Source of the DNA: a virus
Taxonomy: Duplodnaviria > Caudoviricetes
Reading direction: 5' to 3' (one strand)
IMG/VR virus record: IMGVR_UViG_3300013137_000023
Coordinates: 1-56,925 of that record
Length of the DNA stretch: 56,925 nucleotides
Shown: in pieces, positions 2,551 to 56,351 of the stretch
Numbering within the stretch: the first letter of the stretch is position 1
Layout: every line of letters begins with the position of its first letter
Program-made: the position numbers and the translations under genes
The notes under the pieces: generated by a model
What the model was told of the DNA's origin: nothing
Databases searched by the model: none
What the model saw: the letters and a program-made list of their open reading frames with translations, nothing else

Positions 2551-2604
2551 GTGTATCATGCGCTTTTTCGTGATACACGGTTTCCGCTCAATTACTTGTT
2601 ATGC
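2551..2604 (+). repeat. Truncated attC (3' half only), left boundary of the array
   Basis: CCGCTCAATTACTT-GTTATGC R' end at 2598-2604 and hairpin 2551-2578; no R'' seen. Confidence 0.55.
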
Positions 2605-2853
2605 GTCTTGCGGAAGTATCGCCTCACACTCACGCCACAGCCTCGCAGGGTCGTGGTGCCGCGTGAAGTCCAGCAACACCTTCAAGGCCTCTCGGTCCAT
2701 ACCAAGCGAGTGAACTGGGTCGTGTTGCGACAGCAGCAAAGCGCAGCATTCCCGAGTCAGGGCCAGATCAAGCCTTGCTTCTACGTTTTCGCGCTCGGCC
2801 ATCCACCGCTTCACGGTGTCGTTGTTGCAGGGACATATACCAAATTCGTTCAT
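2599..2853 (-). CDS. Cassette A hypothetical protein (inverted orientation)
   Basis: AAGGAGG SD; stop codon lies in the R' core. Confidence 0.7.
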   Translation of the reverse strand: MNEFGICPCNNDTVKRWMAERENVEARLDLALTRECCALLLSQHDPVHSLGMDREALKVLLDFTRHHDPARLWRECEAILPQDA

Positions 2854-2874
2854 GTCTTCCTCCTTTCATCACAC

Positions 2875-2933
2875 GCCTAACCTGGCGTTGCAGCGGACCC
2901 GTGTGCCACGGCCCGCCGAACTTTTCGTTAGTA
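2875..2933 (+). repeat. attC site 1
   Basis: GCCTAAC...CAGCGGAC...CCGCCGAACTTTTC-GTTAGTA imperfect palindrome. Confidence 0.85.
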
Positions 2934-3086
2934 TTAATAAATAACGGCGTAGTAAATTACATAAAACCATGAAAATATGCCGTGTAAAATAGCCCATAAA
3001 ATTGATTTATTAATGCTCCATGAAATAGTTACTGCTATCGCAGACCCTAAACCAATTCCAGAACTTGTTGCTGTTTCTTTATTCAT
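2934..3086 (-). CDS. Cassette B small membrane protein (~50 aa)
   Basis: Hydrophobic GIGLGSAIAVTISWSINKSILWAILHGIFSWFYVIYY; the ORF extends upstream to 3149 inside attC2. Confidence 0.75.
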   Translation of the reverse strand: MNKETATSSGIGLGSAIAVTISWSINKSILWAILHGIFSWFYVIYYAVIY

Positions 3087-3113
3087 AATGATGAACCTTT
3101 CTTTAATTAAAAA

Positions 3114-3169
3114 TACTAACAAGGTCAATTCAGCGGACTCGTTCCTCACCGCTGATTTTTTCGTTGGCC
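3114..3169 (+). repeat. attC site 2
   Basis: TACTAAC...TCAGCGGAC...CCGCTGA...C-GTTGGCC. Confidence 0.8.
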
Positions 3170-3360
3170 TTCACAATGTCGGGGTGGCATTCCGTGCAGT
3201 ACGCCTCACGACGAAACGGCGTGTAGCTCTGACCAGGTGTCCCGGCCCACTCCGACCACTCGTACCTCTCCCGCACCTTGTCGCACCCCGTGCATTTGCC
3301 ACGAGGAAGGCGAACAAGGCGATGGAGGACTACCTTCATTCGCTCGCTTCGCTCACTCAT
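3130..3360 (-). CDS. Cassette C Cys-rich (CxxC...CxxC) hypothetical protein
   Basis: CTGC and CTEC; ORF starts inside attC3 and ends inside attC2. Confidence 0.6.
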   Translation of the reverse strand: MSERSERMKVVLHRLVRLPRGKCTGCDKVRERYEWSEWAGTPGQSYTPFRREAYCTECHPDIVKANEKISGEERVR

Positions 3361-3387
3361 TTCGGAGCCTCAACTTTCTCGTTATGT
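3309..3387 (+). repeat. attC site 3
   Basis: GGCGAAC...TGGAGGACTAC...GGAGCCTCAACTTTCTC-GTTATGT. Confidence 0.75.
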
Positions 3388-3621
3388 GGAACTTTTGGCT
3401 AAATCACCAGCCATTATTTCTACTGTATAACCTTCTCTATTAGCAACTTGTAGAAATCCAAAATCAAACCTTGTTCCCTCAGTAAATCTATAATGGTCAG
3501 AGGCAGTTACTCGTAGTTCGTGTTCATATCCTGTTTTAGGGTCGCATTTAACCCATATTGCAATTATTTTTTTCATCTTTTCCATTTTAATCTCCCGCCA
3601 AAAGTCCACATAACAAGCCAA
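3382..3621 (-). CDS. Cassette D hypothetical protein
   Basis: ORF fills the cassette; stop codon in the R' core; true start may be MEKMKK. Confidence 0.65.
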   Translation of the reverse strand: MACYVDFWREIKMEKMKKIIAIWVKCDPKTGYEHELRVTASDHYRFTEGTRFDFGFLQVANREGYTVEIMAGDLAKSST

Positions 3622-3735
3622 TCAAACCGACAAAAAATATCGGTGGTGCTGTTAAGGGTCTTGGCTATTTTTAATTTGTAAATCATTTAATTATTTCATT
3701 CTCATTTTTTGCGGTTTATCGGCAAAGCGTTAGGC
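3608..3735 (+). repeat. attC site 4 (long, 128 bp, AT-rich loop)
   Basis: ACATAAC AAGCCAATCAAACCGACAAAAAA...TTTTTTGCGGTTTATCGGCAAAGC-GTTAGGC. Confidence 0.8.
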
Positions 3736-3944
3736 GGCACATCGCCAGATGCTCCTGCGAGTATCCCGCCAGGTGCGTACATCGCCTCAAACTCTCCGTC
3801 CCACTGCACGAAAGAGCGCGTCCCGTCGTGCATCGCCCAAAGCTTGCCGCATCGCGTACAGCCGACTTTCCGCGCTCCGTGGTTCAACACTCGCTCAACA
3901 ATGTAGCGATGGCCGAATACTGCGCAAATCAACCGTTCGAGCAT
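3702..3944 (-). CDS. Cassette E small phage protein (DUF1660-like C...GH, CxxC)
   Basis: LICAVFGHRY...CTRCG; GAGGAGG SD. Confidence 0.65.
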   Translation of the reverse strand: MLERLICAVFGHRYIVERVLNHGARKVGCTRCGKLWAMHDGTRSFVQWDGEFEAMYAPGGILAGASGDVPPNALPINRKK

Positions 3945-3959
3945 ATATCAACCCTCCTC

Positions 3960-4026
3960 GCCTAACCCGGCGTTCGAGCGGGACGCTTCGCCTATCGGCT
4001 TCGCGCCCCTCAACTTTGCGTTATGT
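3960..4026 (+). repeat. attC site 5
   Basis: GCCTAACCCGGCGTTCGAGCGGGACGC...GCGCCCCTCAACTTTGC-GTTATGT, classic attC pattern. Confidence 0.92.
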
Positions 4027-4041
4027 GTTGAAGGGAGACCG

Positions 4042-4236
4042 TCATGTCACAATTTGGATTACCTTGTTTTTTAGAAAATTTAAGGCTTTTCGCAAACCCA
4101 CAGACAGAGCCAGAAAAATACAATCTTTACAATGGTCTTCGGAGTATGTCTGAGGGCCTTGCATCTTTAGTCCTAATCGTTGACAATATTCAGACGCAGT
4201 TAGATCAGATAAATAGAAAATTGGATCAGCTTTCAT
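4042..4236 (-). CDS. Possible antisense ORF fully overlapping the cassette F gene
   Basis: AGGAGG SD 5 nt before ATG on - strand; 64 aa. Confidence 0.4.
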   Translation of the reverse strand: MKADPIFYLSDLTASEYCQRLGLKMQGPQTYSEDHCKDCIFLALSVGLRKALNFLKNKVIQIVT

Positions 4237-4238
4237 AA
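4044..4238 (+). CDS. Cassette F hypothetical coiled-coil protein (canonical cassette orientation)
   Basis: GAAGGGAG SD just after R'; heptad-like C-terminus. Confidence 0.65.
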   Translation: MSQFGLPCFLENLRLFANPQTEPEKYNLYNGLRSMSEGLASLVLIVDNIQTQLDQINRKLDQLS

Positions 4239-4262
4239 TAACCTCCTATTAAAAATTAAATC

Positions 4263-4311
4263 ACATAACAACCGGCTCGACTTGACGAGCAAGTCAGCCG
4301 GGACGTTATGC
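4263..4311 (+). repeat. attC site 6 (minimal, 49 bp)
   Basis: ACATAACAACCGGCTCGACTTGACGAGCAAGTCAGCCGGGAC-GTTATGC. Confidence 0.8.
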
Positions 4312-4612
4312 TCTTTGAATCTGGCTTGCAATGTAGGGTTGCAAGGTTGGGCAAATACCTTTCAGAGGAGGTGGTTAACTTGAAAAAGTTAATACACATT
4401 TTGAAGGGGGCGCGCTTCCGAGTTATTAATCATTTGTACCACCCTTGAACGTGTTAGGCTATCATTTTTGAGTTCAAGAGCCGCTTGATTAGACTTTGGA
4501 AGGCAGAAGGTAATAGTAATGTCTCTTTCTGCTTCGATAGTCGGGCAAAGGGAACACACATTACCGCGCCGCCCTTCTTTTCCATTCCTACATTGCAAGC
4601 CAGATTCAAAGA
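4312..4612 (+). ncRNA. Candidate structured ncRNA in cassette G (retron msr-msd-like architecture)
   Basis: Perfect 26-bp IR (4312-4337/4587-4612), two short stem-loops, then a long branched stem; GAAA loop and G.U pairs favour + strand. Confidence 0.55.
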
Positions 4613-4663
4613 TCGTTTGTGGCTAATACCCACGAAAATATTATAAAAAAATAAAAGTTGATA

Positions 4664-4726
4664 GCATAACCACCGGCTCGACCTCGACCGCCAAAAGACG
4701 GCGGCAGGTCAGCCGGAGCGTTATGC
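4664..4726 (+). repeat. attC site 7
   Basis: GCATAACCACCGGCTCGACCTCGACCGCC...GGCGGCAGGTCAGCCGGAGC-GTTATGC; related to attC6. Confidence 0.88.
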
Positions 4727-4739
4727 GTAAATATCACCA

Positions 4740-5390
4740 TCACCTATTTGCCTCAAAGAACGCTTGTGCAAATCCAGGCGGTGTAATTGCCCTGCGTTCC
4801 TGCCTTGTGTATTTGCCGTAATATTCCGGGTATATGTCCTTGCTCTTGAGCATCGAAAACTTAACCATGCCAGACGGCTTCTCGGTTGTTTTCGGAAGGG
4901 GCTTGTTGAACTTACCCCACAGCGCCGTTGTCTTCTGGTAGTTGTCTCCATATTCCCACGGCTGGAAGATCATCGCTGGTTCTTTTAGCCACTTCTTGAG
5001 CAAGCTGTTTGCCGGATTCTCTATGGCCCAAAACTTCGGCTGTGCGGTCAGTATTATCCGGCAACATGCCGCAGCCACTTCAAGCCCTGCCTCGAAATCG
5101 TGCGTGTAGTTTCCCTTGCAATGGAAATATTTGGCTATGCTGAAATTATCGCAGGGCGTGGCGGCTAAAATGCCGTACACGTTATCAGGTGGTATGTAGA
5201 GCCTGACATCATCAGTAGGCAGAGTTACTATTCTCACATCATAGCCTGCTTCGACATAGGGGCGGCTCCATGAGCCCGTGCCTCCACAAAGATCAAGAAT
5301 GATACGATGCGCATAACAAGCGCATCGAGAGGGACGCGGTATCCCGCCGTCTTCTTTTTTCATTTCTGCCTTATTCACCGCGCCCCTCAT
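4740..5390 (-). CDS. Cassette H short C5-cytosine DNA methyltransferase-like protein
   Basis: Motif I LDLCGGTG, motif IV ATPC, motif VI IENP; start codon inside attC8. Confidence 0.75.
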   Translation of the reverse strand: MRGAVNKAEMKKEDGGIPRPSRCACYAHRIILDLCGGTGSWSRPYVEAGYDVRIVTLPTDDVRLYIPPDNVYGILAATPCDNFSIAKYFHCKGNYTHDFEAGLEVAAACCRIILTAQPKFWAIENPANSLLKKWLKEPAMIFQPWEYGDNYQKTTALWGKFNKPLPKTTEKPSGMVKFSMLKSKDIYPEYYGKYTRQERRAITPPGFAQAFFEANR

Positions 5391-5404
5391 GCTTGTCGTT
5401 ATTT
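5311..5404 (+). repeat. attC site 8, right boundary of the array
   Basis: GCATAACAAGCGCATCGAGAGGGACGCGG...CCGCGCCCCTCATGCTTGTC-GTTATTT. Confidence 0.88.
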
Positions 5405-5776: not shown

Positions 5777-6162
5777 CCCTCCAATTCCAGTTTGAGCTGT
5801 CCCGCCAGTTTTGCGGCGGTTATGTTTCCCTGAATTGATACCGTCCTTAGATAGTCGAAGGCCCTGCGTCTGAGTTGTTCAATCCATGTCTTGTGTTCTT
5901 CGGGGTCAACTATCCACCAGTAACCCACTTCAAAGTCGGCCCCTATGGGATGTCCAAATCGCCTGAAATCCCGGATAATCTTTTGGACCTGCTTTTGTCC
6001 AACCCCGGTCATTCCGGTTATTTCCCGGCTTGTCATGGCGTTTTCCCGGCCTTGACAACTGAGGTAAAGCAATGACAGGATGTTCTTTTCAGACTGGTTT
6101 GTGTGTGCGTACATTATTTCCCTCCCTTTGACGCCTGCTTCCGGGCCATCAAAAACCCCCAA
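5773..6162 (-). CDS. Winged helix-turn-helix DNA-binding protein
   Basis: TSREITGMTGVGQKQVQKIIRDFRRFGHPI...GYW pattern; probable start MYAH. Confidence 0.7.
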   Translation of the reverse strand: MGVFDGPEAGVKGREIMYAHTNQSEKNILSLLYLSCQGRENAMTSREITGMTGVGQKQVQKIIRDFRRFGHPIGADFEVGYWWIVDPEEHKTWIEQLRRRAFDYLRTVSIQGNITAAKLAGQLKLELEG

Positions 6163-6419
6163 TAATTACCGTCCTGAAGCTCGCCAGTTACCCACCGAAG
6201 GGCATCAATATTGCCTAAGCAGTAGGTCTTGTTCTTAGCCTCTCCGTAGACCTTATTCAATTCCCGGATCATAAACTCAGCCTTGGCTTTCTGGTCCTTT
6301 TGGGCCTGAACCAGTTCGGAAAGTTGCCGGTCAAGTCTGCGATTGAGCGTCCCAAGAAATAACCCTGCTATCAGGGTAAGGATAATCAAGGCGATAAAGA
6401 TTATTTCAAGTGTTGTCAT
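6114..6419 (-). CDS. Hypothetical protein with N-terminal TM helix
   Basis: Hydrophobic N-terminus then coiled coil. Confidence 0.55.
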   Translation of the reverse strand: MTTLEIIFIALIILTLIAGLFLGTLNRRLDRQLSELVQAQKDQKAKAEFMIRELNKVYGEAKNKTYCLGNIDALRWVTGELQDGNYWGFLMARKQASKGGK

Positions 6420-6536
6420 TCCCCACCTGCCTTTCCCGTTGTTCCCGGTATTCGGTTTCGCTCGATTTGAGTAGGGCCACGACTATCAATGAAATCCAAG
6501 CCCCGACAAAACAGCCAAGTATAAAGCTAAGCATAT

Positions 6537-6743
6537 TTACCTCCCCGTCAGCCTATTTTTCTTTCCGTTACAGGACCGATAGGGAAACGGCCCTCCCATT
6601 TTCTGCCATTGCTCACGAAGCGCCCGGTTTTCAAACCTCGCCGCCCATGCTCCTCTTTCGTGGTCCCTTGCCGTTTTACCTACACGCATTATTTTACTTT
6701 CATTCATCCTCTTTGCCTCCTCTCTGCCTTGCAATGACAGCAA
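6537..6743 (-). CDS. Hypothetical protein
   Basis: Co-oriented short ORF. Confidence 0.4.
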   Translation of the reverse strand: MLSLQGREEAKRMNESKIMRVGKTARDHERGAWAARFENRALREQWQKMGGPFPYRSCNGKKNRLTGR

Positions 6744-37485: not shown

Positions 37486-37758
37486 CATTTACGTTAATGG
37501 CTAACTGTTTATGAAAGCCCTATCGGTTTCCCGATAGATCAGACCATATCTTCCGTTTCCGGTCGTGCGCTCGTGGAGCTTTACTGTCCGTTCTGGACTC
37601 CATGCTCTGGTCGTTGAACCTTCAGCCCATTCCTGGGCAGCTTGGTTGCTGATTGTCCAATCCTTGGAATTTTTATAACCATCACGCCCATCGTTACCAA
37701 TCACGTTGTGGTTTTCAAGGCTCTTAGGATTTCCCAGCAATTCACACGATATTTTTTC

Positions 37759-37787
37759 TTGACTTCCTTCTATGTTTCCGGTATAAT
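37759..37787 (+). promoter_or_regulatory. sigma70 promoter for the intron endonuclease (antisense to capsid mRNA)
   Basis: TTGACT-17 nt-TATAAT; AGGAG SD at 37806-37810. Confidence 0.8.
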
Positions 37788-37815
37788 ATACTCCATAATT
37801 AAACAAGGAGTAACC

Positions 37816-38496
37816 ATGAAGACAAGTAAAGATTATAGAGAAACCAAAGAAGCAATTTGTAAGTGTGGATGTGGACAAACCTTCTACCCTGTAAGGTTTT
37901 GGGGTAAGGCTAAATTTCCTGAATATATCAGGGGCCATCATCCGAATTGTCGCAAAAAGCAATTTGGACTTATCCCGGCATGGAATAAGGGAATGAAAAA
38001 AAGAGATCATCCTTCTCTTGAACGAATGGGATTTCAGGTCGGCCACAAATCTTTCTTTAATTGGGGGAATGTCCATGAGATAATGGATAAAAACCCATCT
38101 ATTAGAGAAAAATGGCTTAATGCCCAAAAAGGTAAAAAGCCGTGGAACAAAGGGCTTACAAAAGACCTTTATAAAAACGGGATTAAGTCTGGCCCGGAGC
38201 ATGGTAACTGGAAAGGCAATAAGCGTGGCATATACGACCTTGCTATCCTTAAGGAGTTTACAAAGCATATCCTTAAGAGGGATAATTATACCTGCCAACA
38301 GTGCGGAGATCATAATTATCTTGGCCGTGGTTCCCGTATAAAACTTAATGTCCATCACATTATTGCTATTAAAGAAGATGTTACCCAAGCTCTGAATCCC
38401 CAAAACGCCACAACCTTATGCTATGACTGTCATGTTAAAACCGAAAACTATGGAACAAAACTTATCCATAAAAGAAGAAAACAAGCGGGCAATTAG
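37816..38496 (+). CDS. HNH homing endonuclease with NUMOD-like DNA-binding repeats
   Basis: CKCGCG; PAWNKG/PWNKG; HGNWKG; RDNYTCQQCG...LNVHHI...NATTLCYDCH. Confidence 0.9.
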   Translation: MKTSKDYRETKEAICKCGCGQTFYPVRFWGKAKFPEYIRGHHPNCRKKQFGLIPAWNKGMKKRDHPSLERMGFQVGHKSFFNWGNVHEIMDKNPSIREKWLNAQKGKKPWNKGLTKDLYKNGIKSGPEHGNWKGNKRGIYDLAILKEFTKHILKRDNYTCQQCGDHNYLGRGSRIKLNVHHIIAIKEDVTQALNPQNATTLCYDCHVKTENYGTKLIHKRRKQAGN

Positions 38497-55733: not shown

Positions 55734-55941
55734 TCTCCGTCCTCCTTGTAAACATCCGCCTTAAAACGTACGAGCGAATGATTGAAATAACAGTAAACCA
55801 TACACCGATCAGAAAATTGTCCCGAATAGGTACATGAAGCCCAAAGTAGGGAAATATTACAATCTGGCTCCCCACTGCGACTAAGTATCCGGCAGCTACA
55901 TTCGTCAGGCTTTCGATAAGGCTAAACTTTTTAGACTGCAT
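55726..55941 (-). CDS. Small membrane phage protein
   Basis: MQSKKFSLIESLTNV...IRSYVLRRMF, two TM. Confidence 0.7.
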   Translation of the reverse strand: MQSKKFSLIESLTNVAAGYLVAVGSQIVIFPYFGLHVPIRDNFLIGVWFTVISIIRSYVLRRMFTRRTEID

Positions 55942-56351
55942 TACAGCCTCAAAAAAACATTAGTTCTGGGGCATTCATCATATTTTTTTTCGGCAGATAT
56001 TTTCCAGACCTGGGAATCGTCATGCCATACCGTGCCATTACAGACATCTTTTAAAAACTTGATTAGATTATCAAGATCTGGCTTTTTGACATGGTCCCGG
56101 TCCCGTTGCTTTTTTGGCATGGATTCGGGGATAGGCATATAAAACGTAACGTCCATCATGACACCGACCCCTTTCTCAATAGGCGGGTCCTTCCACTGCT
56201 GCTTAATTTCCCATAACACCCGGCCCTCCTCGGTTTCCTGGTCGTTATAGGTCGTGACAAACTTTCCCCGGCGAGCGAACCTGGGGCGCTTCTTGGCTAT
56301 CGGATTGCCGGGAATTGTTATGGTCTTTTCCATCACTCCTCCTTTTTGCAA
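55941..56351 (-). CDS. rusA: RusA family Holliday junction resolvase
   Basis: KKRPRF; KPDLDNLIKFLKD; DDSQV. Confidence 0.88.
   Translation of the reverse strand: MQKGGVMEKTITIPGNPIAKKRPRFARRGKFVTTYNDQETEEGRVLWEIKQQWKDPPIEKGVGVMMDVTFYMPIPESMPKKQRDRDHVKKPDLDNLIKFLKDVCNGTVWHDDSQVWKISAEKKYDECPRTNVFLRL

Follow-up and report, generated by a model that had tools for sequence, protein, structure and literature searches.

A predicted integron-type cassette filled by a 301-nt element with perfect 26-bp terminal repeats at the edge of a phage attC array

Background

Clusters of attC sites without an integrase (CALINs) have already been described in virulent phages (Qi et al. 2023, PMC9892861), where, in the excerpted part of that report, attC hairpins with RYYYAAC/GTTRRRY boxes lie between small genes, no integrase is present and a DNA methyltransferase is adjacent. 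Integron cassettes carrying no gene or no ORF are known as well, and according to the excerpts of two studies promoter activity is the main role of those tested (Blanco et al. 2024, PMC11014356; Tansirichaiya et al. 2019, PMC6557892). The IS1111-attC elements with a seekRNA have subterminal repeats, and their RNA segments match both strands of the target (Siddiquee et al. 2024, PMC11187229, in excerpt). Both the phage-borne attC arrays and the gene-less cassettes are recent and thinly studied subjects, and the cassette described here, called cassette G, is a clean case of both.

Results and Discussion

A CALIN in a complete lake-water phage

The window, that is, the whole stretch of DNA analysed here, is an entire IMG/VR virus record of 56,925 bp, rated complete, from a lake-water phage. 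Nearly all genes of this phage are on the − strand, and the neighbours of the array include RecT, an exonuclease and a DNA methyltransferase. The features at the scale of the array are:

2598..4726, + strand: attC array without integrase (CALIN) with seven cassettes, A to G; boxes read by eye and from alignments
4044..4238, + strand: cassette F, coding for a conserved 64-aa protein
4740-5390, − strand: phage methyltransferase gene, adjoining the right edge of the array

The array resembles the phage CALINs (PMC9892861, as excerpted) in having attC hairpins with the same boxes between small genes, no integrase and an adjacent DNA methyltransferase, and differs in that five of the seven cassettes have their ORF opposite to the attC sense strand and that cassette G has no gene, only a folded element; the attC sites here are predicted. 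The crossover G|TT boxes lie at 2598, 2925, 3164, 3381, 3650, 4020, 4305 and 4720, and both the invariant AAC/GTT columns and the RYYYAAC ... GTTRRRY boxes are visible in two attC alignments. To the left of the sites flanking G we read five attC-like sites and one half site, on the basis of reading and of weak DNA-fold z-scores; strong support from both the fold and a covariance model (CM) is confined within the array to the two sites flanking G. A general attC alignment intended for a second model was dropped, as it gave no consensus fold. No tyrosine or serine recombinase is found in the whole phage, and PF00589 (IntI) has 0 matches there, with a control that matched in 14 of 14 genomes. Since the phage has no integrase, the array is a CALIN and not a complete integron.

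The ORFs of cassettes A to E (2599-2853, 2937-3089, 3130-3360, 3382-3621 and 3702-3944) are on the − strand, against the + sense strand of the attC sites; in two of them the TAA stop comes from the reverse-complemented R' box, and ORF 3130-3360 runs into the preceding attC. Cassette F shares its attC type with G. Its + strand protein, with the motif ENLRLF..PEKYNLYNG, has 6 homologues at 47-73% identity and 14 invariant columns, and in a phage contig with an F homologue (L035) only the + frame is open. Because F encodes a conserved + strand protein, the sense strand is set for both cassettes of this attC type, and F and G look like a pair of canonical cassettes ending a reversed array.

Several observations concern the neighbours themselves. 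In cassette F (4042-4238) two 64-codon ORFs on opposite strands overlap completely; the − frame has a perfect AGGAGG Shine-Dalgarno sequence (SD) and 8 other proteins at E<=1e-3, probably shadow frames. The IMG/VR phage contig L035 has at 3380-4900 an attC array that mixes reversed cassettes with the + strand F homologue, and no G-like element is found beside it. Leads for protein F in Acidobacteriota and Planctomycetota (scores 0.89) are below the threshold of the tool. Among 12 relatives of the methyltransferase, none has an attC site or the element behind the gene, and the RecT search gives no close phage relatives.

Cassette G and its borders

Cassette G is made up of 6 nt of R' box, followed by the 301-nt element, an AT-rich spacer of 51 nt and an attC of its own:

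4306..4720, + strand: cassette G, 415 bp, with borders G|TTATGC at 4305/4306 and 4720/4721
4263..4311, + strand: attC closing cassette F and left border of G; DNA hairpin z -5.6 / -6.0, CM match
4664..4726, + strand: attC of cassette G and right edge of the array; DNA hairpin z -6.4 / -6.6, CM 79.6 bits
4613..4663, no strand assigned: AT-rich spacer, read from the sequence, with a consensus -10 on the − strand only

Both flanking hairpins are attC-like: ...ATAAC precedes and GTTATGC follows a stem whose left arm has a bulged C. The model, CM R1, was built from four sites, namely the two flanking G and two bacterial ones, which are 76% identical column-wise; it scores 58.9 bits on the + strand vs 19.6 on the − strand at 4263-4311, a site that is itself in the model. 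A scan with the attC pattern gives 5 stretches, of which two are true relatives, L017 with 83.8 bits and L019 with 84.2 bits, and the other three are at chance level (17.8-19.6 bits). L017 and L019 are two deltaproteobacterial MAG contigs. In L017 an ORF at 6094-6672 is followed by attC at 6671-6738, and in L019 an ORF at 4624-4214 by attC at 4209-4143, and each ORF runs into its site. As the ORF enters the attC on the strand equal to the + strand of the window in both bacterial contexts, + is taken as the sense strand of the cassette.

The locus thus has what defines a cassette, attC bounds with RYYYAAC ... GTTRRRY boxes and bulged bases on one arm. The first-pass annotation of this DNA spoke of a mobile RNA-only cassette, and the cassette part of this claim stands: two attC sites of one family bound the element, which is without a convincing protein gene. 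We regard it as very likely that the element is real integron-type cassette cargo. With the gene-less cassettes in the excerpted studies (PMC11014356, PMC6557892) it shares an ordinary size (415 bp), its own attC and the lack of an identifiable protein gene. Among the literature matches listed, there is no cassette filled by a 301-nt element clamped with a perfect 26-bp repeat. Phage CALINs and gene-less cassettes are known already, and what appears to be new, judging from sequence, is cassette cargo clamped by a perfect 26-bp repeat and lacking an Rfam match.

The inverted repeat and the fold

The element of 301 nt, 4312-4612, is closed by the following repeat and contains an inner domain:

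4312..4337, no strand assigned: left arm of the perfect 26-bp inverted repeat, from the sequence and a repeat finder
4587..4612, no strand assigned: right arm of the same repeat, from the same evidence
4403..4577, no strand assigned: inner domain closed by a GC-rich stem, from sequence and fold, including hairpins 4444-4478 and 4504-4532

As first noticed, the 26-mer at 4312-4337 is the exact reverse complement of 4587-4612; it has 2 matches in the window and 0 in 100 shuffles, and a repeat finder that allows mismatches lengthens each arm to 33 nt (91%). The other parts named at first sight are all readable in the sequence as well: G4338 directly after the left arm, a hairpin at 4374-4393 with a GAAA loop, the inner GC-rich stem 4403-4414 / 4565-4577 of 12 pairs with one bulged G at 4571, the hairpin CTTGAAC/GTTCAAG (4444-4450 / 4472-4478), and the hairpin GCAGAA/TTCTGC. 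Two words fitting the attC R' consensus GTTRRRY are inside the element, at 4346-4352 and 4453-4459, compared with 47 in the whole window; the second, GTTAGGC, is in the loop of hairpin 4444-4478 and in a block conserved in a relative (X7, see below). A repeat search finds no iterons.

On the whole, the element folds much better than its shuffles, with -123.5 kcal/mol (z -9.4) as + strand RNA, -113.7 kcal/mol (z -9.5) as − strand RNA and z -7.1 as DNA. The interior alone (4338-4586) has z -2.3 on the + strand, where 3 of 200 shuffles are equally good, and z -3.5 on the − strand, where 0 of 200 are. The folding signal therefore comes mostly from the terminal repeat, and the interior is modestly structured. 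The folding advantage of the + strand is 9.8 kcal/mol, and of 150 shuffles, which give -10.5 +/- 4.6, 84 are as low or lower; the fold contains 11 G-U pairs on the + strand vs 5 on the − strand. Folding energy and G-U pairs were dropped as a strand test, the asymmetry being what composition alone gives. Since the energy advantage is matched by shuffles, folding tells neither the strand nor RNA from single-stranded DNA.

Relatives of the element

Blastn, proposed in the first-pass annotation as a way to find homologues, comes out empty for 4240-4730 against 50,697 phage and 72,556 plasmid records; the run index does bring up diverged relatives, short contigs 82-93% identical to the core 4353-4570, from sediment metagenomes, one metatranscriptome and one organism-labelled run. 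In this index all sampled words are present in three lake-water runs, which are probably where the phage record comes from, 64% in a fourth run and 6% in four more. Runs X4, X6, X7 and X8 were aligned to the window, with Logan contigs only and a minimum of 80% likeness, and such contigs carry no strand information. In X4 the phage itself is present, at a depth of about 4x. The other three runs contain diverged copies: a 151-nt contig of the sediment DNA run X7 differs from the window by 6 changes over 4353-4436; a 243-nt contig of the sediment metatranscriptome X6, which may be carried-over DNA, by 14 changes and no gap over 4367-4570; and a 706-nt contig of the organism-labelled run X8 by 15 changes over 4381-4464, together with indels at 4444 and 4450. 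Sequences related to 3611-3732, elsewhere in the array, are present in X6 and X8 too.

Beyond the aligned parts, these contigs go on as diverged sequence that can still be recognised. In X6 there is an extra T beside the bulged G4571 and a diverged right arm with an inserted T. In X7 the stretch 4437-4454 is almost wholly replaced, but the block TTAGGCTA is kept, and in X8 the block TTGATTAG is kept. Among the changes listed, no indel falls inside 4380-4443 in any of the three relatives (X6, X7, X8), and indels are found just outside, at 4444, 4450, and 4571 and later. The sequences suggest that the core of the element is conserved across habitats, in lake and sediment samples of several studies, and the indel pattern is suggestive of constraint.

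Other searches give no relative. Exact scans with the repeat arms find none in IMG/VR and JGI metagenomes, nor does a scan with a three-block pattern; two 18-mers of the core have 1 and 4 matches in IMG/VR, all limited to the 18-mer; the back-translated 69-codon − strand frame has 13 pattern matches in IMG/VR and 506 in metagenomes, none confirmed. BLAST against the two MAGs of the attC family and 401 genomes of one phylum gives a single 29-nt AT-rich match, to part of the spacer, and no further copy of the element is present in the rest of the window or in the other loci compared.

The micro-ORF

The core common to the three relatives is also the region of a short frame:

4366..4448, + strand: SD and micro-ORF; AGGAGG at 4366-4371, 8-nt spacer, TTG ORF at 4380-4448

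The SD before a 22-codon TTG ORF had been pointed out earlier, and we find it as described, with AGGAGG at 4366, 8 nt upstream of the start. The peptide of 22 codons is MKKLIHILKGARFRVINHLYHP. In the predicted minimum free energy fold, the start codon is at the tip of hairpin 4374-4393 and the SD is partly paired. Within 4240-4740 the + strand has two pairs of SD and start, the weaker being AGAAGG before the ATG at 4519, and the − strand has none. In this phage AGGAGG seldom occurs other than at gene starts: the + strand has 13 copies over the entire genome, and of the 29 copies on the gene strand 19 precede ORFs of at least 40 aa. In X7 the frame continues with six sense codons and then TAG at 4455-4457, so it stays open with a different tail. 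The open frame of 22-25 codons in all three variants is weak evidence, because six random codons are open about 3/4 of the time.

Of the 22 residues 8 are K, R or H, and the longest hydrophobic run is at most 2 residues, so the peptide, as predicted, is basic and amphipathic, not hydrophobic. It has 0 matches in Pfam and NCBIfam families at E<=10. The frames of cassette G have no match in Pfam, NCBIfam or PHROGs; in the protein database the − strand frame finds only the window's own 56-aa call and the + strand 46-aa frame gives no candidate. From its sequence, no frame of cassette G looks like a protein.

A clamped messenger as the tentative best explanation

The element probably acts as RNA rather than as DNA. 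The best explanation that we can offer, and offer tentatively, is RNA-level cassette cargo: a clamped transcript that hides the micro-ORF on the + sense strand. Cassette G, at the end of an integrase-less attC array in the early region of the phage, would carry neither an ordinary gene nor a retron part. RNA would be transcribed from the sense (+) strand of the cassette, and its two 26-nt ends would anneal, locking the transcript in a stable, closed structure in which local helices hold the strong ribosome-binding site and the UUG start of the 22-25-codon frame. Translation of the peptide, which is small, basic and amphipathic, would have to wait until this structure is opened or cleaved. RNA duplexes such as a perfect one of 26 bp are substrates of RNase III, and this enzyme may be what cuts the clamp. 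Such logic would be that of type I toxin messengers such as hok, and the cassette might serve as a stabilising or conflict module in the array, with a peptide that may be toxic. That the micro-ORF is translated and matters is, taken by itself, somewhat doubtful.

Messengers of the hok/sok type bury a small ORF with a strong SD in structure and pair their RNA ends over long range. The element is like them in its buried small ORF with a strong SD and in the pairing of both RNA ends. It differs in that the peptide here is basic and amphipathic whereas theirs is a hydrophobic membrane helix, in that the clamp here is a perfect 26-bp duplex whereas theirs is short and imperfect, and in that no family is matched here. 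For an antisense RNA gene with a promoter of its own, the − strand offers an 8-of-12 consensus match at 4457. A type I toxin-like mRNA had been the alternative of the first-pass annotation, and it stays among the two leading readings: by prediction only, long-range folding of the mRNA hides its SD and start, and the peptide is not a hydrophobic, membrane-spanning one and matches no known toxin family.

We prefer a messenger for the micro-ORF over a peptide-free RNA because of the perfect and well-spaced SD, the sense strand set by F, and where indels fall in the relatives. The clamped messenger is weakened by a peptide unlike known type I toxins, the lack of a convincing promoter, the TTG start, a peptide tail that varies between relatives, the lack of any Pfam or NCBIfam match, a folding that gives no strand preference, and an interior that is modestly structured. 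In addition, as transcription in the phage is on the − strand, a + strand RNA of cassette G may not be made in the phage.

A peptide-free regulatory cassette

Possible, and somewhat less likely than the messenger, is a gene-less regulatory cassette without any peptide, either a structured non-coding RNA, that is, a binding or decoy RNA, or a − strand promoter with a long structured leader for the reversed genes of cassettes F to A. Gene-less cassettes are a known class, of which most tested carry promoters according to the excerpted studies (PMC11014356, PMC6557892), and the surrounding phage genes are all on the − strand. There the spacer has a perfect TATAAT at 4645-4640, just upstream of the element and with a T-rich stretch before it, which is a consensus match only: its -35, ATGCTA, matches just 3 of 6, and a stricter scan finds no promoter at the element. 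The best + strand candidate is TTGACG-19-TATGCT inside the left attC, and a − strand antisense candidate at 4457 matches the consensus at just 8 of 12 positions, so that neither strand appears to carry a convincing promoter. The interior being slightly better folded than shuffles on the − strand (z -3.5) speaks for this reading, and the loop blocks TTAGGCTA and TTGATTAG, kept beside a hypervariable stem arm in X7 and X8, suit a structured RNA. The element matches no Rfam family: Rfam 15 over 4100-4800 at E<=10 gives 4 matches, all with E>5 and to unrelated families, and no msr match. The perfect SD and start on the + strand would then be a coincidence, at a rough estimate from the AGGAGG counts about 1 in 100.

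Transposon and other DNA-level readings

It is improbable, in our judgement, that the element is a MITE or foldback DNA which entered the cassette or replaced its cargo, with the 26-bp repeats as transposase-binding ends and an incidental fold. One variant of this reading is an attC-targeting IS1111-type element that has lost its transposase and retains a seekRNA. It would account for the perfect 26-bp terminal repeats and the size of about 300 bp, and for a folding signal that is mostly due to the terminal repeat and equal on both strands once composition is allowed for. Only 6 bp separate the element from the attC crossover, and one end of the attC site is the target of IS1111-attC elements (PMC11187229, in its excerpted part); GTTAGGC in a hairpin loop, having the attC R' consensus, would fit as well. 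Target-site duplications had been named earlier as the mark of a MITE; no direct repeat of 2-10 bp is found at the element ends at offsets 0-3. The element is also single in the phage and absent from the collections searched: phage and plasmid records, IMG/VR and JGI metagenomes by the patterns used, and the 2 + 401 genomes. For IS1111 in particular, the subterminal repeats measure 11-13 bp in the excerpted text, with extensions of 7 and 3 bp (PMC11187229), against 26 bp here; the left attC is intact, and the joined ends of the element form no promoter on reading of the sequence. The idea of a seekRNA was dropped, the element and its flanks sharing only three 6-mers. Thus the element shares with MITEs and IS1111-attC elements the terminal inverted repeats, the size of ~300 bp, the place at one attC end and a structured non-coding interior, and differs in having no target duplication, one copy, and repeats of twice the IS1111 length. 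A decayed transposon would be an ordinary finding.

Quite improbable is a DNA-level device, either an invertible switch between the 26-bp repeats or a priming or origin fold of single-stranded DNA. Length and spacing of the repeats are within the range of invertible promoters, and the DNA fold (z -7.1) and the like folding of both strands would agree with such a device. So would the fact that attC function works through folded single strands, as the excerpts of two papers state (PMC5737381; PMC9892861). Against it, the phage has no tyrosine or serine recombinase, for which reason the inverton idea was dropped, and no iterons, and the four runs aligned show no joint with a change of strand, in contigs that drop rare variants.

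The retron reading

The claim of a retron-like ncRNA found no support: that an orphan msr-msd RNA uses or decoys a host retron reverse transcriptase (RT) is very improbable, although a1, G, a pair of small hairpins, a long stem and a2 can be traced in the element, and the a1/a2 repeat with a G directly after a1 is present as in Retron-Eco1 (PMC11754653, in excerpt), where this is the priming G. The feature is generic, and the layout fits any RNA closed by a long stem; moreover, the motif around the G is UAGG here and UAGC in Eco1 according to that excerpt, the inner 'msd' folds as a branched domain and not as a single long hairpin, and the region downstream on the + strand is attC and then the antisense methyltransferase, which is the context of an integron cassette. 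The absence of an RT, already stated in the first-pass annotation, holds for the complete phage (0 matches of PF00078 at E<=1, with a control matched in 4 of 14 genomes), and the check with retron covariance models likewise came out negative, no msr model matching on 4100-4800 in Rfam at E<=10. Among the literature matches listed on phage-encoded retron RNAs, there is no orphan phage msr-msd. What the element has in common with a retron ncRNA is therefore the terminal inverted repeat, the G directly after the left arm and the hairpins that follow; it differs in lacking an RT gene and a model match, in its branched inner domain and in its place in an integron cassette.

Significance and a wider conjecture

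If the fold is under selection, the element would be a new mobile RNA family and a concrete test both of non-protein cargo being spread by integron recombination and of its use by a phage. Its interest would rise sharply if full-length relatives covary. A wider conjecture, which we consider a long shot, is a family of RNA-only integron cassettes, self-clamped RNAs with or without a micro-peptide, that would move between bacterial integrons and phage attC arrays and take part in phage-host conflict, for instance as decoy or bait for RNA-binding or reverse-transcribing defence, or as a phage-captured addiction module.

Other observations in the phage and its lake

Rfam over the whole window finds only a group I intron, far from the array (RF00028, 71 bits, full model), at 37520-37817 on the − strand, inside or beside ORF 37501-38403; the ORFs flanking it are without a Pfam match. 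A 113-nt palindrome at 56211-56323, inside ORF 55941-56351, has CCATAAC ... GTTATGG ends and CCCGGC/GCCGGG inner arms; it looks like an attC site but folds no better than shuffles (z -0.8).

In the lake metagenome X4, a methyltransferase contig 87% identical to 4724-5392, at 57x, ends at 4724, the right edge of the array. In the same run, the attC core 3973-4023 has a depth of about 32 and cassette D (3379-3627) of about 48, that is, 8-12 times that of the phage itself, with unlike flanks starting from the R' boxes. Such breakpoints of context, seen for the neighbours in the array (the attC core 3973-4023, and cassette D from 3379) and not for G, suggest that cassettes of the array circulate in other genomes of that lake.
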